Below, piece after piece: positions 2,905-56,542 of a stretch of DNA of 64,000 nucleotides (its first letter is position 1; every line of letters starts with the position of its first letter). The position numbers were made by a program, and so were the translations under genes. The notes below the pieces were generated by a model, which worked only from the letters and a program-made list of their open reading frames with translations, had not been told where the DNA came from and searched no databases. Source of the stretch: a virus (Duplodnaviria; Caudoviricetes); IMG/VR virus record IMGVR_UViG_3300010429_000979, positions 1-64,000 of that record; one strand, given 5' to 3'.

Positions 2905-4812
2905 ATGAGCATCACTAATTTACCTCATCACAATGAAGACACTTGTCCCAGTAATTCTGGGTCAGCTGCCGATCGTTGGGTGGTAAGAGGAAAACTTTAC
3001 AATGACATCGTAGATAAATTCGAAGAAGTCATTGAAGCAGTGGGAGAGTTGGAAACTCAGGATCCACTAATCTACAAGGGCCTCATTTCCCAAACCTCAA
3101 CTATGGAGGTCCTTTCTACTGATGGGCCATTAATCCCCGGTACAAAATACTGTATCAAAACCATCGCACAGGGAGATGATTTCAGTAACTTCGGAATTGA
3201 AAATGAAAATGATCAGGTCTTCATCCCTGGAACACTATCTGGGGAATCGGTAGAGATCCAGGAAAATGTTAATGCTGTTGCCCAGGTGGAATACGTTAAA
3301 CTAACCGGGGCCTCTACTGCTAATTACATTGCCATTTCTGGACCTGGAGGTTTAACTTGCAGGCTTAGTGGGATTGAAATGACATTGGCCCAAATAGCTA
3401 CACTGTTTGCTGAAAACTATGCAGATGCCTATCTAGCTGAGGGTATCATAGTTACTGCAGACAATGCCTCCATCTTCTTCACTGCTGCTGTGGCTGGAGT
3501 TCCATTTACCCCTCCTACTGTTACGGTAGTGCCTTGGGATTTGGATGGTACAGTGGCTCATACCCAAGCTTATTCAGCACCTGATCAACAATCCGAAACC
3601 GTTACACTTACTGGAACATCTGGAACTGCTGCAATTTCAGGGGCTGGCTTGGAGATGCGGTTGGCTACATTTCGGGTTGGACTCACTGAAACGGCTGCAG
3701 ATTTCGTAACGGCTTATGCGGCTGACTATTTGGCTGAAGGCGTTATAGTGACCTCAATCTTAGCCGATATTATTTTCACTGCTGAAGATGCAGGGGTTGC
3801 CTTTGATCATGTCGATGTCCTGAATGGCTCAGGAGATCTGGATGGTACAGTATCCGTTACCCAAGAGAACGTAGAAGAGGTAGTGAAGATCGACACCATC
3901 ACCCTTACAGGGACATTAGGTGGAGTAGCCTCAGTGGAAGCTGCAGGAATTGGACCACACGCTTTATTCCTCTTTCCAGATCTAAACACTCCAGAATTTG
4001 AATCCGTTCCTAAGACTTTAGCCGAAGCAGCTGAGCTTTTCGCTACTCAAAATCTTAGCGCTTACAGTAACGTTGATATCACCCTTTCTTTCTCGGGTTC
4101 AGATATTATCCTAACTGGTCAGGCAGGAACAGGTGATTTTACCTCACCAGTAATCACCATGTATCCTGCAGGTGATTTGGATGGTACGATTGGAACTGAG
4201 AATACTCCTAACGTTGAAGCAGTGGCTCAGGTTCAGGAGCTCATCGTTACTGGAGATAGCGGTCAAAGTATGATGTATGCTGATGGAAATAGCCCAGTTC
4301 AGCTTCTGGAATTCAATACCGATATCCCAACTACTCTCGCAAACTTCGTAACGACTTATGCAGAATACTTTCTCAGCGAACATGTCATCATAACCCGTAC
4401 CGATACCTCACTGATCTTTACCAGTGAAACACCAGGAAATGCCTTTGATACATACTCACTTATGGGTAACGTTACACCGGCAGTTTGGGAAAATGGTACC
4501 GTACTGATGATCAACTTTGATCCTTATGCTGATACTAAGGTAAACACACTTGGTGATTTTACTCTCAGAAGGCTTGAAACAGGGGTTTATGAGATGGTAT
4601 TTGAGGAAAGCCTCTTCACTGAGAATAACATGCCATTCATCACTCCCCAGACTTCATTCGTAGTTGTAGAAGGATCTTTACTTGGTCTAGTCTTTGTATC
4701 GGTAGATTCAGAGAATACCCTGTTGATTCAAACCACTGCAAACATGACTCCTGCGGATAGTATGATGAACAATGTACCTTTAACTATTGAGGTTTATCCT
4801 CAACCTTTATAA
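2905..4812 (+). CDS. putative virion structural protein with four tandem ~100-115 aa domains
   Basis: Acidic, T/A/G-rich; repeated unit (AQV/SET)..LTG....FVT.YA..YL.E.V.(I/V)T....I.FT; first three units end in DLDGT. Confidence 0.55.
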   Translation: MSITNLPHHNEDTCPSNSGSAADRWVVRGKLYNDIVDKFEEVIEAVGELETQDPLIYKGLISQTSTMEVLSTDGPLIPGTKYCIKTIAQGDDFSNFGIENENDQVFIPGTLSGESVEIQENVNAVAQVEYVKLTGASTANYIAISGPGGLTCRLSGIEMTLAQIATLFAENYADAYLAEGIIVTADNASIFFTAAVAGVPFTPPTVTVVPWDLDGTVAHTQAYSAPDQQSETVTLTGTSGTAAISGAGLEMRLATFRVGLTETAADFVTAYAADYLAEGVIVTSILADIIFTAEDAGVAFDHVDVLNGSGDLDGTVSVTQENVEEVVKIDTITLTGTLGGVASVEAAGIGPHALFLFPDLNTPEFESVPKTLAEAAELFATQNLSAYSNVDITLSFSGSDIILTGQAGTGDFTSPVITMYPAGDLDGTIGTENTPNVEAVAQVQELIVTGDSGQSMMYADGNSPVQLLEFNTDIPTTLANFVTTYAEYFLSEHVIITRTDTSLIFTSETPGNAFDTYSLMGNVTPAVWENGTVLMINFDPYADTKVNTLGDFTLRRLETGVYEMVFEESLFTENNMPFITPQTSFVVVEGSLLGLVFVSVDSENTLLIQTTANMTPADSMMNNVPLTIEVYPQPL

Positions 4813-4819
4813 ACAAATC

Positions 4820-4844
4820 GGCCCTCTTAATTGAGGGCCTTTTT
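4820..4844 (+). terminator. rho-independent terminator
   Basis: GGCCCTC-TTAATT-GAGGGCC then TTTTT, 8 nt after the stop of 2905..4812. Confidence 0.8.
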
Positions 4845-4852
4845 GTGTGAAG

Positions 4853-5056
4853 TTATGGTTGTTTATATCCTCTCCTATAATCAGTATTGTTTAGAGATTC
4901 CTCCTTCATGCTTTCGGGCATGGGAGGGATGGGAATAGTTTCTGGGTCAAACATGACGCTTGCCCTTTCTTCAAATTTAATGGATAATTCATTGTAATTA
5001 TCAAGCATAGCCTGTCGCATAGCTTCACAGGCAATATTCCATTCTTCTTGTGTCAT
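4853..5056 (-). CDS. hypothetical protein, 67 aa
   Basis: ORF track; last gene of the minus-strand cluster. Confidence 0.55.
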   Translation of the reverse strand: MTQEEWNIACEAMRQAMLDNYNELSIKFEERASVMFDPETIPIPPMPESMKEESLNNTDYRRGYKQP

Positions 5057-5059
5057 AAT

Positions 5060-5323
5060 TTATTGTATTGTATCACACCAAACGCTATCAAGGAATACCT
5101 CTATAGGCTTTTTATCAATCTCATCCCAAGTCAGAAAATAAGTGCTATCAGCAAGGTTCTGATAATACTGCATGGCATAGGCAACATTTGCTCGATTCGT
5201 TGTGGGCATCATGTATGCAGTATCACAAACCTGTGTAGTTTGTTCAGGTGAGAAGTATCCTGGTTCGTAGCAAACCAAAATCGATATAAGGTAAACCCAG
5301 TATCCAATTACAGTTGTTGTCAT
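5060..5323 (-). CDS. small membrane-anchored or exported protein, 87 aa
   Basis: N-terminal hydrophobic stretch VIGYWVYLISILVC; four D-(S/T)-hydrophobic motifs. Confidence 0.55.
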   Translation of the reverse strand: MTTTVIGYWVYLISILVCYEPGYFSPEQTTQVCDTAYMMPTTNRANVAYAMQYYQNLADSTYFLTWDEIDKKPIEVFLDSVWCDTIQ

Positions 5324-5577
5324 GGGAATTTTGGTAAGTTGTTATTAGCTTGATAGATTTCCTGAACCTTCGAGTCAATGCTTTTAATGTGAGCATTCAG
5401 TTCATTAACTTGGGCTTCTCTAGTATCCCTCATCTTATAGATTAACCTAAACAGGATTATGTTTTGGTGCTCAACGCTGTACACAGGCATAATGGCATCA
5501 TGCATATCTTTCACAAGGTTATTAATAGCTGTATCTACTTCTGGACTGATTGGGGTTATCTGTTCTTCTGGTTGCAT
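5320..5577 (-). CDS. hypothetical protein with C-terminal coiled coil, 85 aa
   Basis: ORF track; ATGA overlap with next gene; ACTATT motif upstream. Confidence 0.65.
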   Translation of the reverse strand: MQPEEQITPISPEVDTAINNLVKDMHDAIMPVYSVEHQNIILFRLIYKMRDTREAQVNELNAHIKSIDSKVQEIYQANNNLPKFP

Positions 5578-5585
5578 ATCTTTTA

Positions 5586-5603
5586 TTTATTATAAATAGT
5601 ATC
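5586..5603 (-). promoter_or_regulatory. putative phage-specific promoter (GATACTATTTATAATAAA)
   Basis: ACTATT starts 23 nt before the ATG at 5577, the spacing seen at other loci. Confidence 0.5.
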
Positions 5604-5634
5604 CTTCATACCTAGAGTATTCCACTTGTATCAC

Positions 5635-5662
5635 AAAAAGAAGCCCCGTAACCAGGGCTTCT
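5635..5662 (-). terminator. rho-independent terminator (minus strand)
   Basis: AGAAGCCC-N8-GGGCTTCT with an A-run on its left (U-tail on minus), after 5695..5934. Confidence 0.7.
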
Positions 5663-5694
5663 CAACAATAATTAACCGACTAATATGAAAACAA

Positions 5695-6322: not shown

Positions 6323-6597
6323 GGTTCTTGATTATTTAATAAGGTTTTTTCGTATTCTCTTCTTGTTGTACTTAAGGACTTCAATTTCTCTTTGGCACCA
6401 AACTCATCAAAGTAAGTTACCTTGTTAGATTCAGTTAAGTATTCTTGAAACTCCGACTTACAGGCATTAAAACCGTTGCTGTAAGATGCTCTAGTTAGAA
6501 AAATGCAACCAACTAATATAGCAATAACTCCAGTTATTACTAGAAAGATACCGATTGTCCAATCCATTGTTCTCATATTAGTGTTGATAAGTGCCAC
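6319..6597 (-). CDS. single-pass membrane protein, 92 aa
   Basis: TM segment WTIGIFLVITGVIAILVGCIFL. Confidence 0.6.
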   Translation of the reverse strand: MALINTNMRTMDWTIGIFLVITGVIAILVGCIFLTRASYSNGFNACKSEFQEYLTESNKVTYFDEFGAKEKLKSLSTTRREYEKTLLNNQEP

Positions 6598-7039
6598 CCC
6601 AGTTAGGTGTTATATATCCCGGTACTATAACTCCTCTATTGGATGGTATTGTCCAAGTATTCTCCATTTCAAGGTGAATAATCTTGCAACCTGGCTTAGT
6701 GCAAGTCCTATGGGTAAAGGTTATGTCGCTAACGGTATCCTTTAAAGTGACGCCATCAAGGTTAGCGATATAGTAGATGGCATGTCTACTAGTGTCATTG
6801 TCGAAAATATGGCCGTCGACTTCAATGATACCTGTTAGCTTAAAGATAAGGACCTCTTTTGAAAAATCAATAGTGGCCTTCTCGATAGCCTTCTTCTGTG
6901 AAATTGGCTTAAGACCCTTAGGAATATCCTGAGATCTAGCCTTGATGATCACAAAAAGAATCAGTAACACTAAAATAATTACCTGGACAGTGGCAGCAAC
7001 AGTATTACCAATTCTAGGATTCATTTTGCCTGTGCTCAT
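6578..7039 (-). CDS. membrane-anchored or secreted protein, 153 aa
   Basis: Hydrophobic VQVIILVLLILFVII followed by KARS|QDI. Confidence 0.6.
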   Translation of the reverse strand: MSTGKMNPRIGNTVAATVQVIILVLLILFVIIKARSQDIPKGLKPISQKKAIEKATIDFSKEVLIFKLTGIIEVDGHIFDNDTSRHAIYYIANLDGVTLKDTVSDITFTHRTCTKPGCKIIHLEMENTWTIPSNRGVIVPGYITPNWGGTYQH

Positions 7040-7721: not shown

Positions 7722-8708
7722 TTGAATATGAACATTTTAGGTGTATGTGGAGGGAATGGGGTAATATTACACCCATTTAAAGAGAACTTGGTTGGGAACA
7801 TTGAAATACGGTCTGCATTTAAAACTCCTAAGGACATACAATGGCAATTAAACTTTCCTGATAAGTTACTGTTTACGGAGGATGTAATCAAACACCATAA
7901 GAATATCGATGTTATTGTAGGGGCTCCAAATTGTGGCCATTCTTCTATGCTTGCACTTTCTCGGGGAAAGAAATTTACCTCCGCTAAGGATGATGATAGC
8001 TTTAACCTTTTCATACGATCTGTACAAGAACTAAAACCGAAGGTATGGATGATGGAGAACTTACCTAAGCTAGAGGCATCATATAGCTTTGATGATTTTA
8101 CTGCATCTTTCCCAGAATACACAATAACTATGATAGTGGCTAGTGTATTTGAGTTTGGTAACTCCCAAAGAACAAGAAAAAGGCTATTGGTTATTGGGTG
8201 CTTGAATCCAAGTCATATCAACAGATTTAGGCCATTTCCAGTTAATATACCAAAACTCTCTGGTGATTTAGTCTGGGACTTAAAAGAAGAGGATGAATCA
8301 ATTTGTAACGTAAGGGAGGGATTAGATGAACGATTTGCTTTATACGGGGGGAAACAGGTCACTGTTCAAGAGGCTAAGGAAATCTGGGAAGCTTTACCAG
8401 AGAACTCAAAACGTCTCCTCACTCCCGGAGAGAATTTCTCAACCGCACCAGGAGTCTACAGAAATCCCAGAGGATCTTATCCCTCTACCGCACGAAAACA
8501 AAACAGGCAATTTAACCATTGGAACTTAATGATGACCCCAAGGGAATTGGCCAGAATCCAGGGTATACCTGATAAATTCAAACTTTGGTATGATGAAACG
8601 AAAAGGAAACAGTGTATAACGAAAGGAAGGATAACGGCTACAAAAACCCCTCCTTATGAGATTGGGAAATGGTTTAAGATATGCCTTGAATCCATATCCG
8701 ACTTTTAA
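7722..8708 (+). CDS. dcm: divergent DNA (cytosine-C5) methyltransferase
   Basis: Motif I-like LGVCGGNG, motif IV GAPNCGHSS, motif VI MENL, motif VIII SQRTRKR, motif IX MTPRELARIQGIPDKF. Confidence 0.8.
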   Translation: MNMNILGVCGGNGVILHPFKENLVGNIEIRSAFKTPKDIQWQLNFPDKLLFTEDVIKHHKNIDVIVGAPNCGHSSMLALSRGKKFTSAKDDDSFNLFIRSVQELKPKVWMMENLPKLEASYSFDDFTASFPEYTITMIVASVFEFGNSQRTRKRLLVIGCLNPSHINRFRPFPVNIPKLSGDLVWDLKEEDESICNVREGLDERFALYGGKQVTVQEAKEIWEALPENSKRLLTPGENFSTAPGVYRNPRGSYPSTARKQNRQFNHWNLMMTPRELARIQGIPDKFKLWYDETKRKQCITKGRITATKTPPYEIGKWFKICLESISDF

Positions 8709-8722
8709 TATAAGGAAAGAAA

Positions 8723-8773
8723 GAGGGATAAATATATTATATATCTATAAGATATAATATATTTGTATCCCTC
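8723..8773. repeat. long imperfect inverted repeat upstream of terminase containing TATATTTG (8758-8765)
   Basis: GAGGGATA/TATCCCTC 8-bp outer stem plus a ~12-bp AT-rich inner stem with a 2-nt bulge. Confidence 0.65.
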
Positions 8774-8806
8774 AATCAATCCTTTGGTAATGATATACTA
8801 AATAGA

Positions 8807-10318
8807 ATGGGAATAACAACAAGAATTGATAAGAGATACCTTTCAGAATCTGAGCTAAAGATATTAGCTAAAGTAGTGAATGATCCCTTCCTATTCTCAA
8901 CTTTTGTATGGGTAATACATCCTATTAAAGGAAAGGTTAAATTTGCTTTGTATCCTTTTCAAAAGAAAGTGTTATGGTATTTCTTGATGGGAAGGTTTAA
9001 CATAGTACTGAAATTCAGACAAGCAGGATTGACAGAGTTAATAGCCATGTATTGTTTATGGCTTGCAATGTATCATAATAATAAGAGTATCCAGATTATT
9101 TCTATCAAGGAAACAGTAGCTAAGAAAGTTCTGAGAAGGATTAAGTTTGTTTATAAAAATCTACCATCATATCTTCAAGTACCTATAATCAATGGAACGT
9201 CAAGGACAAGTTTTGGGACAACAACAGAAATCGAGTTTGCGAATGGTTCAACTATCACCTCTATTCCAACTACAGAGGATGCCGGACGATCTGAAGCTTT
9301 ATCGTTATTGGTTATCGACGAGGCAGCGATCATCAAATGGGCCAATCAAATCTGGGCAGCAGCTTTCCCTACCCTTTCAACTGGAGGATCTGCAATTCTT
9401 AACTCCACTCCTTACGGTGTTGGAAATTTCTTCCACAAATCCTGGGTAGATGCAATGGCAGGTGGTAACCCATTTACACCAATCAGATTAAAATGGGATA
9501 TGCACCCAGATAGGGATATCAATTGGTATAATACAATGAAATCCGCATTGGGAGCTAAAAGAACAGCTCAGGAAATCGATGGTGACTTTCTTTCATCTGG
9601 AGATACGGTATTTGACTTAGCAGATATCAAAGCAATAGAAGATCTCTTACCAGAATACCCAGTCATTGAAACCAGGATGAATGGTTCACTTCATATCTTC
9701 AAGAAGGCTCAAAGAGGAGCAACTTATTATCTAGGGGCCGACGTTGCTTCTGGTAGAGCGAGAGACTATTCCGCCTTTACTATAATGGATAGATACGGCG
9801 AAGAGATGGCTGTATTTAAGGGTAAAGTAACAACCGACCGCTATGGCGATATCCTAATGAAAATCGGATATGATTATAACATGGCACAGATAGGTTGCGA
9901 AGCAAATGATATCGGTTTATCAGTAGTTGATCAGATTCAAAGGGCCGGTTATGCCAATACTTATTTCTCAACTGAAGTTCTTCGGGAAAAGGGAGAAGCC
10001 AGGGCCAAAAAGAAAAGGATACCAGGTTGGTTAACTACAAAAAAGAATAGGCCAGTTATTATTGATGAACTCGAAGAGGATATCAGAAATAACAATATCA
10101 TAGTAAAGGATCAGTTCTTCTGTCAAGAAGCCTATACCTTTATCTATAATGAACAAAACAAACCCATCGCTTTGGGTAAAGATAAATCATCTAAGGAATC
10201 AACAGAGGACTTACTCGAAGATGATAATACATATACTGATGACTCTATCATGGCAAAGGCAATATGTAATTACATCAGAAAGGGAAGAGCCTCAACAGTA
10301 GTTGTAGCACCTCAATAG
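8807..10318 (+). CDS. terL: terminase large subunit
   Basis: Q-motif LYPFQ, Walker A LKFRQAGLT, Walker B LLVIDEAA, STPYG motif, RNase H-like nuclease LGADVASG, C-terminal DDSIMA. Confidence 0.95.
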   Translation: MGITTRIDKRYLSESELKILAKVVNDPFLFSTFVWVIHPIKGKVKFALYPFQKKVLWYFLMGRFNIVLKFRQAGLTELIAMYCLWLAMYHNNKSIQIISIKETVAKKVLRRIKFVYKNLPSYLQVPIINGTSRTSFGTTTEIEFANGSTITSIPTTEDAGRSEALSLLVIDEAAIIKWANQIWAAAFPTLSTGGSAILNSTPYGVGNFFHKSWVDAMAGGNPFTPIRLKWDMHPDRDINWYNTMKSALGAKRTAQEIDGDFLSSGDTVFDLADIKAIEDLLPEYPVIETRMNGSLHIFKKAQRGATYYLGADVASGRARDYSAFTIMDRYGEEMAVFKGKVTTDRYGDILMKIGYDYNMAQIGCEANDIGLSVVDQIQRAGYANTYFSTEVLREKGEARAKKKRIPGWLTTKKNRPVIIDELEEDIRNNNIIVKDQFFCQEAYTFIYNEQNKPIALGKDKSSKESTEDLLEDDNTYTDDSIMAKAICNYIRKGRASTVVVAPQ

Positions 10319-50009: not shown

Positions 50010-50480
50010 GTGGAACTGAGATCAATTAAGGTACACAGTGGATATTTTATATCTGACGAGGGTGATGTATATCATAATGGCAAAAAGAAAAATAAGTATA
50101 TCAATCCTCGTAATGGTTATTACAGGTTAATGATACAGGGCAAAAACTATCGGTTATGTCAATTAGTGGCTAGGCGCTTTGTTGAAAATCCCAGTAATAA
50201 ACCCAACATCAACCATAAAGATGGGAACAAGTTAAATGACAAAGCCGGGAACCTTGAATGGGTTACTCAGCAGGAAAACATTGATCATGCTATCTCAATG
50301 GGCCTTGAAAATTTCAAGGGCATTAATAACCCAATGGGAAAGTATACGAAGGAGGATGTAGAAAAGATGAGATCAATGAAAAAGCTTGGCTTTACCCAAC
50401 GCAGAATAGCAAAAGAATTCGGCTCAACTCAAGGGTATATTTCTCAAGTACTGAGCGGGAAAAAACAAATATATGTTTAA
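50010..50480 (+). mobile_element. free-standing HNH homing endonuclease
   Basis: INHKDGNKLNDKAGNLEWVTQQENIDH HNH motif plus C-terminal HTH (IAKEFG). Confidence 0.88.
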
Positions 50481-50503: not shown

Positions 50504-51301
50504 ACGGACATTCGCGACATTAAAGAAGTAGTACCATGTCCCTGTGGGACAGGATTAGAGCAGATGTGGGATCTGCAAATGGAATTGGTAAACCATTACA
50601 TCGAGATTGAGAAAGTCCCACCTCCAGTATGGGAATTGGATGTGAAGGAACATCAGATAAACGTCAAGGATTTCCTTGCACGGGTAACTGAAGAACTCGG
50701 AGAAGGGTTTGAATCGTATGAGATCATGTATGAGAATCGTGCAGAACCCCATTTCGATAACATCCCGTATCTTCAGAACCTTAACGAAGAGATCTCAGAT
50801 GCTTTGCACTTCCTCATCGAGGCTTCAATCTTTACTGGAGTAACCATTGAGAACATCCTTCACGGGTTTAGGAGACATGCCCTAAATGATTTAGAATGGG
50901 CAAGGAAGGACCTATTAACCTATTTCCTATTGATTTCAAGAAGGTTAAATGAGTACTCAATCTCATCATTCATTGGTAAGATGATCGCTATACCAGAGAA
51001 TGAAGATCTTGCATTCCTTCAAGGTGGTAGGCATATCTCCAAAAAAGGTTTGGATGAATTGGCAGTCAGGATGTGGGATGTAACATTCTCAATCCAGTTA
51101 GCCAGGAATTCTCTGAAGAACAAACCTTGGAAGCAAACCAACATGAGAACTGATGAGAACCAATTCAAACACCACATGGTTCAGGCCTGGATTAAAATGT
51201 TCAGGTTACTGGAATATATGGGATATAATGAGGAGGGTATCTTCACAATCTATTTCAAGAAAAATCGGGTTAACTTATTCCGTATCAAATCAAAATACTA
51301 A
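50504..51301 (+). CDS. all-alpha NTP pyrophosphatase (dCTPase/dUTPase, MazG-like); start probably upstream of the track ATG at 50564
   Basis: EELGE and EEISDALHF motifs; in-frame extension to ACG at 50504 behind AGGAG. Confidence 0.75.
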   Translation, partial: TDIRDIKEVVPCPCGTGLEQMWDLQMELVNHYIEIEKVPPPVWELDVKEHQINVKDFLARVTEELGEGFESYEIMYENRAEPHFDNIPYLQNLNEEISDALHFLIEASIFTGVTIENILHGFRRHALNDLEWARKDLLTYFLLISRRLNEYSISSFIGKMIAIPENEDLAFLQGGRHISKKGLDELAVRMWDVTFSIQLARNSLKNKPWKQTNMRTDENQFKHHMVQAWIKMFRLLEYMGYNEEGIFTIYFKKNRVNLFRIKSKY

Positions 51302-52065
51302 TGAGAGTAAAGGTATTAGAATATGGCTCTAGCCAGGAGGCCTGGGAAGGCATCAATGAATACTTCCTTACAGAGGAAGAGACTATCCTTAAGTATGGTG
51401 GTAAAAGGCCAGGGTCACAACTCATTGCCTATGACACATTAGTAAGGATCAGAAACTCTTGGGTTGATCCTAAGTTTGATTTCGGGAAGATGTTCAATTA
51501 CCATCCTCACAAATGGAACAGGCTCATCTCCAACTATATGGATATGAATGTGTTGGATCTGGTAAAGGCAGAGGTCCAAAGCAGAGAGAGGAAGAAGTCA
51601 TCATCATACAATGTTGCATTCCTATTCAGTAATGCTCACGCCTCTGGTAAGGGGTGTCTGTTATCCTGTACCTTTACACGCAGGTCTGGGGAACCAAATC
51701 CAATCCTAATTATTAACCTTAGGTCATCAGAGATTGTTAAGAGACTTATCTTTGACTTCTTGTTAATACAAAGGATTGGAGAATATGTATATGGTGATCG
51801 TAACATATCTCTTCAGATCTTTTTCCCAAACATGTATACCAACTCAGAGACCTCTATCATGTATGATATCCATAAGCCAATCCTAAAGTTGGAAGGGTTT
51901 ACTGGTGAGTTACCATTTCAGAAGTCAGTCATTGATAAGATGGAGGAATTCAAACTCATTGACCCTGAGAAAATCAAATACGGTATCCATCGTAGGGCAG
52001 CTAGGGTTATACAGGGTACGGGGAAAGCTCCTGCGTTACTAGCGGAGATGTGCAACCTCAAGTGA
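51301..52065 (+). CDS. divergent thymidylate-synthase-fold protein 1
   Basis: KGCLLSCTF (catalytic-Cys-like) and LRSSEIVKRLIFD motif. Confidence 0.65.
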   Translation: MRVKVLEYGSSQEAWEGINEYFLTEEETILKYGGKRPGSQLIAYDTLVRIRNSWVDPKFDFGKMFNYHPHKWNRLISNYMDMNVLDLVKAEVQSRERKKSSSYNVAFLFSNAHASGKGCLLSCTFTRRSGEPNPILIINLRSSEIVKRLIFDFLLIQRIGEYVYGDRNISLQIFFPNMYTNSETSIMYDIHKPILKLEGFTGELPFQKSVIDKMEEFKLIDPEKIKYGIHRRAARVIQGTGKAPALLAEMCNLK

Positions 52066-52072
52066 TAAGGAT

Positions 52073-52090
52073 TTACTATTAATATAAAAA
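52073..52090 (+). promoter_or_regulatory. putative phage-specific promoter (TTACTATTAATATAAAAA)
   Basis: ACTATT 24 nt before the ATG at 52099. Confidence 0.55.
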
Positions 52091-52098
52091 TAATAACT

Positions 52099-52812
52099 AT
52101 GAGAATTTATGCCACACCCTATGAACTCATGTCAGAAATCATGAGGGAGGTATGGGAAATGGGGGAAATCGTCCATCCGGCTTCAATGCAAAACAAGGAT
52201 GTAAGGGACAATGATGACTACATTACCAAGGAAATACTCAACTATTCCTACTGCCTTAAATCCTTAACTCCAGAGAATGATGAACCCTTATTCATTTTCT
52301 CTAATGCCAAGGATTGGGCTGCTCGGGAATTGCTTGAAAGGGTATCTGGTAGGCCACTTAATCCTGGACATGCTTGGGAATTACGGAAAGAAGTATGGAC
52401 TGAGTTCCTTAACAAGGAGGGTAAGTTTGATTATACCTATCCTGAAAGGATTCACATCTACCTTGAGCCTATCATCAATGAGTTAAAACGTAACCCAGAT
52501 TCAAGGCAATGCGTTCTCTCAATCTGGGACAGGCAAAAAGATATCAGATTCTTGGGTGGTAAACGCAGGATTCCTTGCTCAGTCTACTATCAATTCCTAT
52601 TAAGGAATGGGAAACTGCACATCATTTACAACCAACGTTCTGCTGATGTAGTAACCCATTTCGGTAATGACGTATGGCTTGCTTGGATGCTAAAGGAATC
52701 AGTAGCCTTCACAATCGGAGTTCCTGGTGGTGATCTATTCCATAACATTGCCTCACTCCACAGCTACAAAAAGGATTGGGAAACACTTAAACAAGGAATA
52801 TCTAAACGATGA
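52099..52812 (+). CDS. thymidylate-synthase-fold protein 2, dCMP hydroxymethylase-like
   Basis: PDSRQ, RIPCSVYYQF, QRSADVVTHFGND, SLHSY; Asp at the E. coli ThyA N177 position. Confidence 0.8.
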   Translation: MRIYATPYELMSEIMREVWEMGEIVHPASMQNKDVRDNDDYITKEILNYSYCLKSLTPENDEPLFIFSNAKDWAARELLERVSGRPLNPGHAWELRKEVWTEFLNKEGKFDYTYPERIHIYLEPIINELKRNPDSRQCVLSIWDRQKDIRFLGGKRRIPCSVYYQFLLRNGKLHIIYNQRSADVVTHFGNDVWLAWMLKESVAFTIGVPGGDLFHNIASLHSYKKDWETLKQGISKR

Positions 52813-53249
52813 AAAGGATTTCTAGGGATGAACTTGCAATTTCCATTGCCAGGCTTTTTGCAAAAAGAGGAACATGTGGTCGACGCCAAGTCGGATGCTG
52901 CCTAACCATTGACGGTAGGGTTATTGCTTCTGGTTACAATGGTACGCTTCCAGGGTCTCACCACTGTTCCCTCCTAGAACCTAAATCAGAACGAACATGC
53001 GATCCAACACTCCACTGTACAGATGCAGTTCATGCTGAGGCTAATATGATCGCTTACTGTGCAAAACACGGGATAGCAACAAAGGATTCTATCCTTTACA
53101 CTACCAGTTTCCCATGTAAGAAATGCGCAGAGTTGGTAATCCAAGCAGGTATCATAACAGTATATTATGACAGGGGGTATCATAAGGAATTAGATGATGA
53201 AGTGAAACAGATGTTTCTTAATGCAAAGGTAGACTTCCACGAGATATGA
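52809..53249 (+). CDS. dCMP deaminase
   Basis: GYNG, HAEAN, FPCKKC zinc motifs. Confidence 0.92.
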   Translation: MKRISRDELAISIARLFAKRGTCGRRQVGCCLTIDGRVIASGYNGTLPGSHHCSLLEPKSERTCDPTLHCTDAVHAEANMIAYCAKHGIATKDSILYTTSFPCKKCAELVIQAGIITVYYDRGYHKELDDEVKQMFLNAKVDFHEI

Positions 53250-55402
53250 GAGACACCCAATATAAAATCATTGATAGTTTAGATGAGCTAGAACAGCTCA
53301 TCTCTTTCTGTAAACAGACAGGGTATGCCTCTGTTGACTTTGAAACAACCAGCTTAGCATTTCATAACGAAGCAGAGTACCCAACCATCTTGGGTGTATC
53401 ATTCCAACCAGGCTCTGCTTGGATTATACCATTAGGGAATTATGATTCACCCTTCAGGGATGTCTGGCAGGAAATACTTCAGATCTTCGGTAAGGAGGTT
53501 ATGGAGAATCCAAATATTGTAAAGATAGGTCAGAACAATAAGTATGAGTACAAGTGGTTCCTCAGCCAAGGCATAAGGCCTACTGGAGTTCTTCTTGATA
53601 CGATGCTTGCAAAGTATTTACTGGATGAGGAAAGGCCCCATGGCTTAAAGGAAATGGTTGCTCGATACATACCGGAGTTTGCTGGGTATGCTTTACCTGG
53701 CTCCAACTCAGATAAGTTTAACTGGGCAGGAGTACCCTTAGAAAAGCTAAGCCAATACTGTGCCCGTGATGCTGACTTCACATTCAGGTTAATGCTTCAG
53801 TTCGAGAGCAGGTTAATGAAGACTGGATTCTATCCACTGTTTAGGAATCTCTTATGTATGCTGACTCGGGTACTCGGTGAATCTGAATTTCATGGTTACC
53901 TGGTAGATGTACCTTATCTTGATTCCCTGATTGAGAAGTATGATAAACTTATCAGTGATAACGAATTGATGCTCAGGACATTACCTGTGATCAAGGAATA
54001 TGAAAAGCATCTCATTGAAGAAAGGAAAAAGAAATTAGTTTCTGAATTAGAGGATGAGATCGATCAACTTGAAAACAGTAATGGATCTAAAACCTCAATC
54101 TCTAACAAGAAGATTAAGATCGCAGAGATTATAACTGGAAAGGTTAGGACTAAGAAAGACCAAAAGATATTCGAGCCCCTTAACTTTGGGTCTCCAAAAC
54201 AAATGGGTGATTTCTTTTTTAAATCAGAACACGGGTTATGCTTTGAAGCAGTTAACTATACTGACTCAGGAGAACCATCCACTGATGAGACTACCTTACT
54301 TGAATTAAAATCAGAAGATGACTCTGGATTCATTGATGCCCTATTAAAGAACCGAGAACTTAAAAAACTTAATTCCACCTACATCGTTGGTATTAGGGAG
54401 TTAATCGATGAAAGGGGTTATCTTCATTGCTCATATCTTATACACGGTACTGTAACTGGGAGGTTATCATCCACTAATCCTAATATGCAGAACCTTCCCC
54501 GTACTGCAACCAATCCAGATATTCGGAAAATGTTTATTGCCCCACCAGGATATCTCTTGGTAGAAGTAGATTATTCTCAGGCTGAACTAAGGGTTGTGGC
54601 TGAACTCTCGCAGGATAAAAACATGTGCGAGATGTTTAACTCCGGTATCGATATCCATACAGCTACTGCCTGTAGGATTGCAGGTAGGGATCCAATAGAA
54701 ATAACCAAGATACTTCATGATGAAAGCCATCCAGATAATAAGGAATGGAAGAAAGCAAGGAAGAGATCTAAGAAGGTATCATTTGGTATTCTGTATGGCC
54801 AAGAGCCACCAAAATTAGCCAAGGAATTAACAATAGAAACTGGTGAGAATGTAACCAAAGCCCAAGCTTCTCAATTCAGGGATGAATGGTTTGATGCTTT
54901 TCCCAAGATAAAGAAATGGATCGATGGACAACATGCATTTGCTACCAAGCACGGATACGTCTACAATATTTTTGGTAGAAAGCGGAGGCTTCATATACTT
55001 AACAATCCTATTAACAAGCGAGCTGAGTTCGGTAAGTGGTTGGAGGCATTGCGTCAGTCTGTCAATGCTCCGATTCAGGGTGCTGCAAGTGACTTCACTC
55101 AACTAACCTCGATCATGATCTGGGAGGAGATACTATATGGTAAACTGCCTTCCACGATTAAACAGGTAGCAACCATTCATGATGCTATCGTTTATCAGGT
55201 AGAACCAAAAGATATCCATCAGTTTGTGAAAAGGGCTATTGAGATTGGGACTAACCCAGAGACAGAAAAATACTTCGGATTTAAAATGAAACACGTAACC
55301 ATGAAACTCGATGCACAGGTTGGGTTTAACTATGGCCAGATGAAAGATTACAAGGAAGAGATTGATTATATTAAATTTTATAAAGATGGGACACAGCATT
55401 AA
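53246..55402 (+). CDS. polA: family A DNA polymerase with 3'-5' exonuclease
   Basis: VDFETT, TGRLSSTNPNMQNLP, DYSQAELR, SKKVSFGILYG, IHDAI. Confidence 0.95.
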   Translation: MRDTQYKIIDSLDELEQLISFCKQTGYASVDFETTSLAFHNEAEYPTILGVSFQPGSAWIIPLGNYDSPFRDVWQEILQIFGKEVMENPNIVKIGQNNKYEYKWFLSQGIRPTGVLLDTMLAKYLLDEERPHGLKEMVARYIPEFAGYALPGSNSDKFNWAGVPLEKLSQYCARDADFTFRLMLQFESRLMKTGFYPLFRNLLCMLTRVLGESEFHGYLVDVPYLDSLIEKYDKLISDNELMLRTLPVIKEYEKHLIEERKKKLVSELEDEIDQLENSNGSKTSISNKKIKIAEIITGKVRTKKDQKIFEPLNFGSPKQMGDFFFKSEHGLCFEAVNYTDSGEPSTDETTLLELKSEDDSGFIDALLKNRELKKLNSTYIVGIRELIDERGYLHCSYLIHGTVTGRLSSTNPNMQNLPRTATNPDIRKMFIAPPGYLLVEVDYSQAELRVVAELSQDKNMCEMFNSGIDIHTATACRIAGRDPIEITKILHDESHPDNKEWKKARKRSKKVSFGILYGQEPPKLAKELTIETGENVTKAQASQFRDEWFDAFPKIKKWIDGQHAFATKHGYVYNIFGRKRRLHILNNPINKRAEFGKWLEALRQSVNAPIQGAASDFTQLTSIMIWEEILYGKLPSTIKQVATIHDAIVYQVEPKDIHQFVKRAIEIGTNPETEKYFGFKMKHVTMKLDAQVGFNYGQMKDYKEEIDYIKFYKDGTQH

Positions 55403-56072
55403 AACAACAGACCTCTCATTAAGGGGTAAAAGTAAAAGGGTAGGATTATTCGGGGCTTCAGGCTGCGGTAAGACAACCATTGCAAGATACATACAGGGTT
55501 TTGGTATACCATTCCTTGAAGCATCTGCCTCAAAATCCTTTACTCATGAGGACGTTGAGAAATTCGAGCAGATCCTCAATCAGAAATTTGTATTCTCTCA
55601 TCAGAATACAATCAAGTGGTCCCATCAATTCCCCGAATTCGGGTATCAGTTTCAATGGGCTGTAGCGAAATACAGGTCAGCTGCAATTAAGAATAACAGC
55701 CATTTCGTCATGGACCGTACACCTCTCGATGTCTACGTCTATTGGTTATTACAATGCGGTCCTTATGTAACTGATCAGGACACTTTGGAATTCCTTCAAT
55801 TCAATCTCGAAGCTTGGAAGGAACTGACTCATGTTATTTATGTCAGTAATACCAATCAACCACCTATCATTGAGAATGATGGTGTAAGGATTCCAAATTA
55901 CCTTTATCAAAGGGTTATCGATAACATCTTCTATATGCAGTTCGATACCCACTTCAGAAAGCATTCACCCAATACAGAGTACAATGCCCTGTTCACTTGG
56001 GACTTGTCGGCTCGGAAAAATCTAGTAGCTGAATTTCTTGGGTTTGATCGCAATACTATTAATATTAAATAA
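55362..56072 (+). CDS. deoxynucleotide monophosphate kinase-like P-loop protein (likely ATG at 55386)
   Basis: GASGCGKTT and DRTPLD motifs. Confidence 0.75.
   Translation: MIILNFIKMGHSIKTTDLSLRGKSKRVGLFGASGCGKTTIARYIQGFGIPFLEASASKSFTHEDVEKFEQILNQKFVFSHQNTIKWSHQFPEFGYQFQWAVAKYRSAAIKNNSHFVMDRTPLDVYVYWLLQCGPYVTDQDTLEFLQFNLEAWKELTHVIYVSNTNQPPIIENDGVRIPNYLYQRVIDNIFYMQFDTHFRKHSPNTEYNALFTWDLSARKNLVAEFLGFDRNTINIK
56052..56069 (+). promoter_or_regulatory. putative phage-specific promoter (AATACTATTAATATTAAA)
   Basis: ACTATT 23 nt before the ATG at 56078. Confidence 0.5.
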
Positions 56073-56077
56073 GTTAC

Positions 56078-56542
56078 ATGCCGAAGAAAATACTGAAATA
56101 CGCCTCCTCCTCCGACCTAATGAATATCCAGATCTTCTATGGGGATGAGCGATTTAGGTTTAATCTTTACGAGGAGATCATCATCAATGAGAACCAGATC
56201 GAAGAGGAAATTAAAAACCAACCCTCTGCATACTCATTCCTATCAATGCTCAGGACTAAGTTAAAACGTAACCTTGCAGATGCGGAATTCGAATTAAATA
56301 AAACCTATGGAAGAGTCTTCAATGAACATAAATCCAAAGTGGATAGACTCTCAGGACGTGTTCCTGGGGATGATACTGTTGTTTCTCGGGTATATTGCGA
56401 TCCTGATTATGCTGAAGCTGCTGAAAAAACGAGGGCACTTAAACACGAGGTTGAGGTCATTGAGACCTGCGTCAGATCATTCGAGCAAAGGAAAGACCTC
56501 ATACAAACGCTTGCTGCTAACCTCCGAAAGGAGAATTCATAA
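56078..56542 (+). CDS. UvsY-like recombination mediator
   Basis: Helical, next to SSB and RecA, FEQRKDLIQTL ending. Confidence 0.6.
   Translation: MPKKILKYASSSDLMNIQIFYGDERFRFNLYEEIIINENQIEEEIKNQPSAYSFLSMLRTKLKRNLADAEFELNKTYGRVFNEHKSKVDRLSGRVPGDDTVVSRVYCDPDYAEAAEKTRALKHEVEVIETCVRSFEQRKDLIQTLAANLRKENS

Follow-up and report, generated by a model that had tools for sequence, protein, structure and literature searches.

The described system closest to the locus analyzed here is that of bacteriophage T4, whose gp56 (dCTPase/dUTPase), gp42 (dCMP hydroxymethylase; PDB 1b5d/6a9a), cd (dCMP deaminase), and gp1 (dNMP kinase) constitute the same function set that we find beside the replisome. A further group comprises the flavin-dependent 5-hydroxy-dCMP synthases, namely AfhB of phage HY126 (PDB 9iqu/9iqc), RB69 gp48, and DLP3 gp80 (PMC13326640), while MilA, the CMP hydroxymethylase of mildiomycin biosynthesis (PDB 5jnh, 5b6d), is another cytosine-directed enzyme of the thymidylate-synthase (TS) fold, which prefers the ribonucleotide and plays its role in bacterial secondary metabolism. 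Data from the literature indicate that, in the E. coli ThyA numbering used below, N177D confers selectivity for dCMP and D169N is the mark of the flavin hydroxylases, and that an Asp or Glu at the L143 site is linked with a product that is hydroxymethylated, as opposed to methylated, which relationship is a correlation and not a proof of product (PMC13326640). Moreover, the MetaGPA study links Asp177 plus a non-His residue at position 147 to contigs with modified cytosine (PMC8670742). Finally, Clostridium phage CPD4 (gp73-75), Gordonia phage Yummy (gp53/51/50), and Mycobacterium phage Muddy (gp48/47/46) carry, in the same order as our phage and likewise beside PolA, a pyrophosphatase, a TS1-like protein, and a TS2-like protein, for which trio the existing annotations give no more than dUTPase, hypothetical protein, and thymidylate synthase; we found no report in the literature on the DNA chemistry of these three phages.

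The locus belongs to a gut phage with a complete genome of 81,313 bp, of which the window, meaning the whole stretch of DNA first read, covers 64,000 nucleotides. Six genes on the + strand, from 50564 to 56072, form the cassette (Table 1). The earlier note had recognized in one run an NTP pyrophosphatase, two TS-like genes, a dCMP deaminase, a PolA, and a dNMP kinase, and had likened that neighborhood to T4; the open reading frames together with Pfam and PHROGs bear out the run, with the last gene as a putative dNMP kinase, and the genes do parallel the T4 dCTPase, dCMP hydroxymethylase, dCMP deaminase, and dNMP kinase set. The start, given there as 50504, needs a small correction, since the pyrophosphatase gene has its first in-frame start codon at 50564. 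The adjoining HNH gene is a mobile insert outside the pathway, and the position of such genes within the cassette varies among relatives.

Table 1. Positions of the cassette genes and of the features adjoining or separating them
Feature	Position	Strand	Size and evidence
HNH homing endonuclease, C-terminal HTH	50010..50480	+	Pfam HNH_3 1.7e-5; PHROG 59 1.9e-35
All-alpha (dimeric dUTPase / MazG-type) NTP pyrophosphatase	50564..51301	+	245 aa; Pfam dUTPase_2 1.2e-8; PHROG 12184 1.2e-21
TS1, orphan TS-fold protein	51301..52065	+	254 aa; AF2 model and structural matches
TS1-TS2 spacer	52066..52098	+	33 nt; promoter-like motif TTACTATTAATAT read in the sequence
TS2, gp42-like TS homologue	52099..52812	+	237 aa; Pfam Thymidylat_synt PF00303 6.7e-17
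dCMP deaminase, ComEB/Cd type	52809..53249	+	146 aa; dCMP_cyt_deam_1 5.4e-19; PHROG 174 6.9e-40
Family A DNA polymerase with 3'-5' exonuclease domain	53246..55402	+	718 aa; DNA_pol_A 2.5e-82; DNA_pol_A_exo1 1.5e-21
P-loop kinase, thymidylate-kinase / deoxynucleoside-kinase fold	55362..56072	+	236 aa; AAA_28 2e-9; PHROG 2107 'thymidylate kinase' 6e-8

TS2, which 117 TS sequences of the PDB match at E <= 0.01, carries E58, W80, Y94, R126, Q127, R143, C146, S147, R166, S167, D169, H173, D177, H207, and Y209, which motif residues are invariant across 48 homologues. Its residues 179-191 (QRSADVVTHFGND) end in D191, which in ungapped HMMER and MAFFT alignments falls on E. coli N177 and is kept in 48/48 homologues; the specificity-site context is GND in TS2 versus RND in T4 gp42, with N-D in common. 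The residues of a gp42-type dCMP hydroxymethylase (C160, R180, S181, D183, and D191 in the numbering of TS2) are thus all present and invariant, and TS2 shares with gp42 the catalytic Cys, E58, Y94, R166, S167, D169, H207, Y209, the Asp of N-D, and a short C-terminus, ending 14 residues past Y209, where E. coli ThyA continues for 55 more and AfhB is likewise short. TS2 differs from gp42, however, in that Arg takes the place of Asp at the L143 site, R127 is replaced by Gln, and G173 by His. With Asp at both 177 and 169, plus S147, TS2 is probably a dCMP-specific homologue of gp42, and, since all the residues for folate-dependent C5 transfer are kept along with the invariant Asp, we infer that it acts as a folate-dependent C5 one-carbon transferase. 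The product may differ from hydroxymethylcytosine (hmC) because of the invariant Arg (R157) at the L143 site, where the hydroxymethylases have Asp or Glu, and the His at G173; an acidic residue at the former site is absent from TS1 as well, which has Gly (G116).

The assignment of TS2 as a canonical ThyA converting dUMP to dTMP was also considered, and is not supported: the residue at 177 is Asp and not Asn, the full-length C-terminal segment needed for closing the active site is missing, and TS2 scored well short of all the NCBIfam ThyA cut-offs, its best result being 59 bits where 174.55 bits are required.

TS1, for its part, had no sequence match in Pfam, NCBIfam, PHROGs, or the PDB at the single-sequence level, and we found no published description of it. 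Its AF2 model (pLDDT 95.9) nonetheless has the TS fold, so that this fold, proposed earlier for both proteins, holds for TS1 by structure and for TS2 by its Pfam match. The best structural match was AfhB (9iqu; VIA-align Z 14.2, rmsd 3.8 A over 181 residues), followed by MilA (Z 13.1, at 8-9% identity), with T4 dCH at Z 9.9 and the gp42 and ThyA matches spanning 9.9-10.7, the 396 chains with Z >= 8 having all been drawn from Foldseek's TS-family matches. Within the PDB, a deep TS1 profile picked up 9iqu/9iqc (E 8e-5) and nothing else, and the Mosigvirus 5hodCMP synthase scored 24.7 bits against it, where other TS types reached no more than 13 bits, both signals coming mostly from the N-terminal 50 residues. 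The nearest known relatives of TS1 are probably the flavin-dependent 5-hydroxy-dCMP synthases and not gp42, at an identity of only 11-13%. Those relatives are hydroxylases and not enzymes using C5-substituted substrates, which circumstance counts against a scheme in which TS1 acts after TS2.

In common with the AfhB-type enzymes TS1 has the Cys nucleophile, R166, and the Asp at N177, and those enzymes resemble both TS1 and TS2 in size and in the short core; unlike them, TS1 has Glu and TS2 Asp in place of the D169N signature, and TS1 bears some 60 extra C-terminal residues. TS1 also differs from MilA, which is folate-dependent and carries Asp at the L143 site as well as at N177. The TS1 residues 140-152 (LRSSEIVKRLIFD) end in D152, which the same kinds of ungapped alignment place on E. 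coli N177 and which is kept in 47/47 close and 29/29 distant homologues. The two strings from which the earlier note had read an Asp at this site in both proteins were quoted exactly, and that reading stands, the residue being invariant in both families. The candidate active-site residues of TS1 are C119, R141, E144, and D152; K71, Y79, C119, R141, and D152 do not vary even among members at 14-23% identity, and the Cys, the Arg, and the Asp at R+11 are likewise invariant across the 183 representative clusters of the family, for which reason TS1 is probably an enzyme. Residues of the folate type are lacking, with E58 and Y94 not alignable and the D169 site occupied by Glu in its own clade and by varied residues in distant members, while the R126/R127 loop, which completes the partner's site in a TS dimer, is missing from TS1, TS2 keeping R126.

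The trio of pyrophosphatase, TS1, and TS2 occurs in at least 464 viral contigs, many of 80 kb. Among 80 related loci the pyrophosphatase lies immediately upstream of TS1 in 74 and the two TS genes occur together in 77 (two of the three exceptions being contig ends), whereas the dCMP deaminase was found in just 12; the conserved unit is thus the trio, with the deaminase as an optional member. In our phage the start codon of the deaminase overlaps the stop codon of TS2. Many relatives show 4-nt overlaps between stop and start codons. Co-occurrence of the two TS genes extends to unrelated lineages (L093, L097, L098, CPD4, Yummy, and Muddy); in L097 and L098 TS1 adjoins the pyrophosphatase and TS2 lies about 6 kb off, and some phages, such as L003, have two TS1 paralogues. 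In CPD4, Yummy, and Muddy the TS2-like proteins retain R-x-P-C, RSxD, and N-D, and the TS1-like proteins the Cys, the Arg, and the Asp at R+11, though the two actinophages, Yummy and Muddy, have R-T-G-Y where TS1 has R-S-S-E. The earlier proposal of TS1 as either a partner of TS2 or a second-step enzyme is consequently strengthened insofar as TS1 accompanies TS2 in very different phages, which association does not choose between the two roles.

The pyrophosphatase, at 30% identity to CPD4 gp73 (E 7e-25), matches the all-alpha dUTPase_2 family of Pfam; its direct match to T4 gp56 is weak and C-terminal (E 6e-4). The kinase model (pLDDT 87.9, with residues 1-20 disordered) matched TMP kinases, dNK, and AbmG best in Foldseek, at TM of about 0.5-0.55; translation may in fact begin at the ATG at 55386, and in 24/80 relatives it was seen within 8 kb of TS1. 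The fold is that of TMPK/dNK, and we take the protein for a putative kinase of the (modified) dNMP. Further departures from T4 are the extra TS-fold protein, the polymerase of family A rather than B, and the lack of an Asn-type td, a DHFR, and a glucosyltransferase. Profile searches of the complete genome detected no Asn-type TS, ThyX, or DHFR, TS2 being the only match to PF00303; no T4 beta-GT, GT1, or GT2 appeared across the whole genome, although divergent transferases could escape detection, nor did NDP-sugar genes or arabinosyl or other glycosyltransferases, and scanning the remaining open reading frames with Pfam and PHROG gave no other post-replicative transferase. The absence of an Asn-type TS and a glycosyltransferase, claimed earlier for the window, thus extends to the entire genome. 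A DNA glycosyltransferase is not essential for base modification, as phages of the XP12 type have none. The transferase not found and the weak gp56 match nevertheless count against a T4-like replacement of dC, and the Arg and His at the L143 and G173 sites of TS2 against hmC as its product.

The reading that we prefer, at a probability of about 0.55, is that 50564-56072 constitutes a pre-replicative cassette on the T4 plan that replaces dC with a C5-modified dC, TS2 acting before a second reaction by TS1. The all-alpha pyrophosphatase would act as a dCTPase (perhaps also as a dUTPase), cleaving dCTP, and possibly dUTP too, down to the monophosphate and so providing dCMP, onto whose C5 TS2 would place a one-carbon unit; the product would most likely be 5-hydroxymethyl-dCMP, as suggested by the active-site residues and the short C-terminus together with the lack of a DHFR gene. 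A cytosine nucleotide might then undergo a second reaction at the hands of TS1, with its retained nucleophilic Cys, phosphate-binding Arg, and cytosine-reading Asp. Most likely TS1 would either convert the TS2 product further, by way of Cys addition at C6 and an intermediate with an exocyclic methylene, or act in a complex with TS2; the formation of an exocyclic methylene from an installed hydroxymethyl group through Cys attack at C6 has a precedent (PMC8989533). The TMPK-fold kinase would phosphorylate the modified dNMP, which the host NDP kinase and then the phage PolA would bring into DNA. The dCMP deaminase would be an optional accessory balancing the dUMP/dTMP supply, as cd does in T4. 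The replacement of C proposed earlier is favored by the Asp site, the TS fold, and the T4-like neighbors, with 5hmC as no more than a possible identity of the base, because the D169N hydroxylase signature is in neither TS1 nor TS2 (which keeps D169) and TS2 has Arg at the L143 site.

If, alternatively, TS1 were an independent dCMP-oxidizing enzyme of the AfhB / RB69 gp48 kind, using flavin or another non-folate cofactor, it would alone make 5-hydroxy-dCMP or a related product and TS2 a separate C5 derivative, with two modified cytosines in the DNA or one serving otherwise. The rank of AfhB as top structural match, the profile results, and the unalignable E58 and Y94 all speak for that possibility, which we nonetheless consider unlikely: the diagnostic Asn at the D169 site is missing from TS1, where the Mosigvirus control shows it in the same alignment, the sequence signal is mainly N-terminal, a glycosyltransferase for a 5-OH handle was not found in the genome searches, and the constant pairing of TS1 with TS2 would be left unexplained. 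That pairing would be natural if TS1 were a non-catalytic or regulatory subunit in a heterodimer, where it would adjust the specificity of TS2 or anchor that enzyme to the kinase and the pyrophosphatase, given that TS enzymes are obligate dimers in which both subunits contribute to the active sites; the overlapping stop and start codons of many relatives and the R126/R127 loop, missing in TS1 with R126 kept in TS2, agree with such a role. The invariance of five TS1 residues at 14-23% identity would, however, be unexpected for a pseudo-enzyme, and the distance between the two genes in L097 and L098 and the paralogues of L003 likewise make a purely subunit function distinctly unlikely.

Quite improbable, in our judgment, is that the virion DNA is canonical, with the cassette serving just to alter nucleotide pools or to produce a modified nucleotide that stays out of the DNA, whether as a decoy or inhibitor of host defense or through dCTP depletion. 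The failure of the genome searches to find a transferase would fit, as would the ready assembly of the carrier genomes from ordinary metagenomes; good assembly, though, is no evidence against modification, because hmC and 5mC DNA sequence normally. In addition, the cassette lies inside the replisome operon, beside PolA, in all the lineages, and TS genes of the Asp177 type go with modified-cytosine contigs in MetaGPA (PMC8670742).

Whichever of these roles TS1 may have, it belongs to an uncharacterized protein family that is found in cultured phages too, which occurrence makes its chemistry directly testable.

The source record is a complete virus genome of 81,313 bp with direct terminal repeats, the window being its first 64 kb, and a single plus-strand replication operon spans 44.9–62.1 kb with the genes arranged as follows.

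Genes of the plus-strand replication operon, with window coordinates
Feature	Position	Strand	Remarks
DnaB-like helicase, primase, SF2 helicase	5' part of operon	+	
HNH endonuclease	50010–50480	+	after SF2 helicase
All-alpha NTP pyrophosphatase	50564–51301	+	
TS1	51301–52065	+	
TS2	52099–52812	+	
dCMP deaminase	52809–53249	+	
PolA	53246–55402	+	
P-loop kinase	55362–56072	+	
gp32-like SSB, RecA/UvsX, FEN, Mre11, Rad50	3' part of operon	+	beyond kinase

The earlier note had flagged TS1 and TS2 as tandem thymidylate-synthase-fold (TS-fold) genes bearing the Asp of dCMP-type enzymes, and the strings that it quoted for both proved exact on re-reading. The TS2/deaminase, deaminase/PolA, and PolA/kinase junctions overlap, and the pyrophosphatase stop codon shares its last base with the start of TS1; the 33-nt spacer ahead of TS2 (52066–52098) contains the promoter-like motif TTACTATTAATAT, which may provide TS2 and the downstream genes with a promoter of their own. 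A megablast of the cassette region against 50,697 phage records returned no match.

The pyrophosphatase resembles the all-alpha dUTPase_2 family of Pfam—the coverage being of the C-terminal 57 residues only—and aligns weakly with T4 gp56 (E 6e-4). Its relatives in the clade measure 260–290 aa and, compared with gp73 of Clostridium perfringens phage CPD4, the protein has additional segments near residues 102–134, so that in this clade the middle of the enzyme is enlarged. For the kinase, the structural model (pLDDT 87.9) has its matches among thymidylate kinases, deoxynucleoside kinases, and, for cytidine, the kinase AbmG (TM ~0.5–0.55), which makes the label of putative dNMP kinase reasonable but unproven. 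In the stretch 55362–55421, the kinase ORF opens at a TTG, overlapping the PolA end by 41 nt, and its residues 1–20 are modeled at pLDDT <50; translation may actually begin at an ATG, at 55386. Between the polymerase–kinase block and the gp32-like SSB lies a 154-aa ORF (56078–56542; PHROG 1069/2058), conserved in 70 of 80 relatives.

TS2 matches the Pfam family Thymidylat_synt (6.7e-17) and 117 thymidylate-synthase sequences of the PDB, and scores far under all the NCBIfam ThyA cut-offs. When aligned with E. coli ThyA, the T4 dCMP hydroxymethylase gp42, a 5-hydroxy-dCMP synthase from a Mosigvirus, and three further TS homologs from phages, TS2 has, in the E. coli numbering, E58, W80, Y94, R126, Q127, R143, C146, S147, Q165, R166, S167, A168, D169, H173, D177, H207, and Y209—all of them invariant among 48 homologs of 54–71% identity—and ends 14 residues past Y209. 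Since TS2 reads G-N-D where gp42 has R-N-D, its D191 (own numbering) is the equivalent of gp42 D179. According to published rules, N177D leads to dCMP selection, an Asp or Glu at L143 accompanies hydroxymethyl products, and D169N is the mark of flavin-dependent 5-hydroxy-dCMP synthases (PMC13326640), positions 177 and 147 having the two strongest associations with cytosine-modified contigs (PMC8670742). By the rules for positions 177 and 169, TS2 is a predicted dCMP-directed enzyme of the folate type; its Arg at the L143 site conforms neither to the methyl pattern (Leu) nor to the hydroxymethyl pattern (Asp/Glu).

A canonical dTMP-synthase role for TS2 was ruled out by Asp177, the short C-terminus, and the scores far below the NCBIfam cut-offs. 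The whole genome contains only one PF00303 gene, and its search revealed no ThyX, DHFR, T4 beta-glucosyltransferase, GT1, or GT2; nor did Pfam and PHROG scans of ~40 other ORFs reveal a transferase. A short C-terminus is common to TS2, gp42, and AfhB (9iqu), the flavin-dependent dCMP 5-hydroxylase of phage HY126, and that feature, together with the lack of DHFR, favors a product requiring no hydride transfer, for which reason a hydroxymethyl group is our best guess, and only a guess. An identity as a 5hoC synthase was supported for neither TS1 nor TS2, D169N being absent from both.

TS1, for its part, had no match in Pfam or NCBIfam, and only chance matches to griffithsin among the PDB sequences; it has 414 close homologs, and its family, when clustered at 50% identity, comprises 183 representatives. 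An alignment of 47 sequences yielded an AlphaFold model (pLDDT 95.9, pTM 0.92) that has the TS fold and best matches AfhB (Z 14.2, rmsd 3.8 Å, 181 residues), followed by the CMP hydroxymethylase MilA (Z 13.1), L. casei TS (Z 10.7), and gp42 (Z 9.9), with no strong structural match from outside the TS family; in BFVD a look-alike occurs in Pseudomonas phage PMBT14 (TM 0.72). A deep profile of 29 distant members, 14–23% identical to TS1, matched AfhB alone in the whole PDB (E 8e-5) and gave 24.7 bits with the Mosigvirus 5hodCMP synthase versus at most 13 with other TS types. In that alignment K71, Y79, C119, R141, and D152 are invariant, of which the last three correspond to ThyA C146, R166, and N177; nothing in TS1 aligns with E58 or Y94, and the D169 position is Glu within the clade and variable in the distant members. 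That the nucleophile, the Arg that binds the phosphate, and the Asp that reads the cytosine were kept over such distances argues for TS1 as a working enzyme that would act on a cytosine nucleotide, and the loss of the folate-type residues argues for a different chemistry. The TS1 and TS2 families align weakly in hhalign (probability 9.9%, or 34% with the deep alignment), with Cys, RS, and Asp in register, which result rules out TS1 as a recent duplicate of TS2.

The cassette is widespread in gut viromes: TS1 relatives are encoded on at least 464 IMG/VR contigs from the clade of this phage alone, and the best 80 of these loci show the arrangement SF2 helicase, small ORF, pyrophosphatase, TS1, TS2, PolA. 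Of the 80, 77 include TS2; in two of the three that lack it the contig stops there, and the third—L047, a 9.7-kb contig—is the sole locus seen with TS1 but without a nearby TS2, an unrelated 191-aa ORF (3331–3906) occupying that slot between TS1 and the dCMP deaminase. A dCMP deaminase was found in 12 of the 80 loci and a kinase within 8 kb in 24. The pattern C...R-[S/A]-S-E...D occurs in 61 of 62 unique TS1 sequences, L047 deviating only at a residue beside the Cys, while every full-length TS2 sequence among the relatives has R-x-P-C plus an Asp at both the D169 and the N177 site; in one TS2 relative R-S-x-D is replaced by R-A-C-D.

HNH genes stand at varying cassette junctions (upstream of the pyrophosphatase, at the pyrophosphatase–TS1 or the TS1–TS2 boundary, or downstream of PolA) in the window as well as in L032, L038, L040, L050–L056, L059, L068, L071–L074, and other loci; the cassette appears to act as an insertion hot spot for these mobile endonucleases. 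In many relatives (L030–L040, L055, L059–L068; PolA region at ~9.7–14.2 kb of each locus), PolA is much longer, reaching ~1,400 codons, or is broken into a pair of ORFs ~900 nt apart, which suggests inteins or intervening endonuclease genes within it.

The trio of pyrophosphatase, TS1, and TS2 also occurs in unrelated phage types: in L093, a 45-kb contig with a UDG–PolA fusion; in L097 and L098, where TS1 adjoins the pyrophosphatase and TS2 lies ~6 kb away; in the human-gut phage MT121964.1 (L003), with two tandem TS1 paralogs (7992–8981 and 8974–9759) between pyrophosphatase and TS2; in CPD4 (gp73–75); and in Gordonia phage Yummy and Mycobacterium phage Muddy. A candidate for TS1 without TS2, L094, was discarded because in its relatives L097 and L098 TS2 lies downstream at a distance past the L094 contig end. 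The cultured-phage records, Muddy's included, annotate the trio only as "dUTPase, hypothetical protein, thymidylate synthase," and that of MT121964.1 has no annotation on these genes. The ispD/licD-type inserts reported for "Flandersviridae" were sought in gaps of the relatives, where DNA ligases were found instead. The 81-kb relative L049 has, just upstream of the trio, an NAD-dependent ligase (3856–5688) and a trimeric dUTPase/dCTP-deaminase-like gene (region 6376–6942), along with a ThyX-like ORF (3366–3896) at 24.1 bits, just short of the 24.8-bit cut-off; this arrangement fits a trio that is not the dTMP supply route.

The best-supported reading of the gene identities, folds, active-site residues, and co-occurrence observed is a T4-style pre-replicative cytosine-modification pathway, in which we infer every substrate and product: the pyrophosphatase would convert dCTP to dCMP, TS2—with TS1—would convert dCMP to a C5-modified dCMP, the kinase and host enzymes would raise the latter to the di- and triphosphate, and PolA would incorporate it into DNA.

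Within that pathway, TS1 may act on the TS2 product, for which a precedent exists in the aGPT-Pplases, where Cys attack at C6 turns an installed hydroxymethyl group into an exocyclic methylene (PMC8989533). TS1 may alternatively be an AfhB-like enzyme acting on dCMP independently, but the strict co-occurrence with TS2 disfavors full independence. As for TS1 being the heterodimer partner of TS2, which it may be, a purely structural contribution is disfavored by the invariant catalytic residues and by a linkage to the pyrophosphatase tighter than that to TS2. We tentatively propose, at roughly three chances in ten, that TS1 is the founding member of a new catalytic branch within the TS fold—distinct from folate-type methylation and hydroxymethylation as well as from the flavin hydroxylation already known—whose Cys would activate a cytosine nucleotide, for example by converting the 5-hydroxymethyl-dCMP from TS2 to a new C5 adduct via an exocyclic-methylene intermediate.

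The novel element is TS1; TS2 and the cassette logic are a variation on a known system, since an Asp177-type TS is already routinely used to predict modified cytosine. Our literature searches found no paper on the TS1 family and nothing on DNA modification in the cultured carriers (CPD4-like Clostridium phages, Muddy). Phage escape from restriction enzymes and CRISPR depends on modified bases, which also influence the sequencing, cloning, and engineering of phage DNA. If the proposed branch is real, an undescribed cytosine derivative would be present in the carrier phages, among them gut Bacteroidota phages, those of C. perfringens, and the therapeutic phage Muddy; a new reaction catalyzed by TS1 would extend a textbook enzyme superfamily by one branch and might bring with it a new DNA base, and if the reaction is not new, the cassette would still be a sequence marker for predicting cytosine-modified phages.
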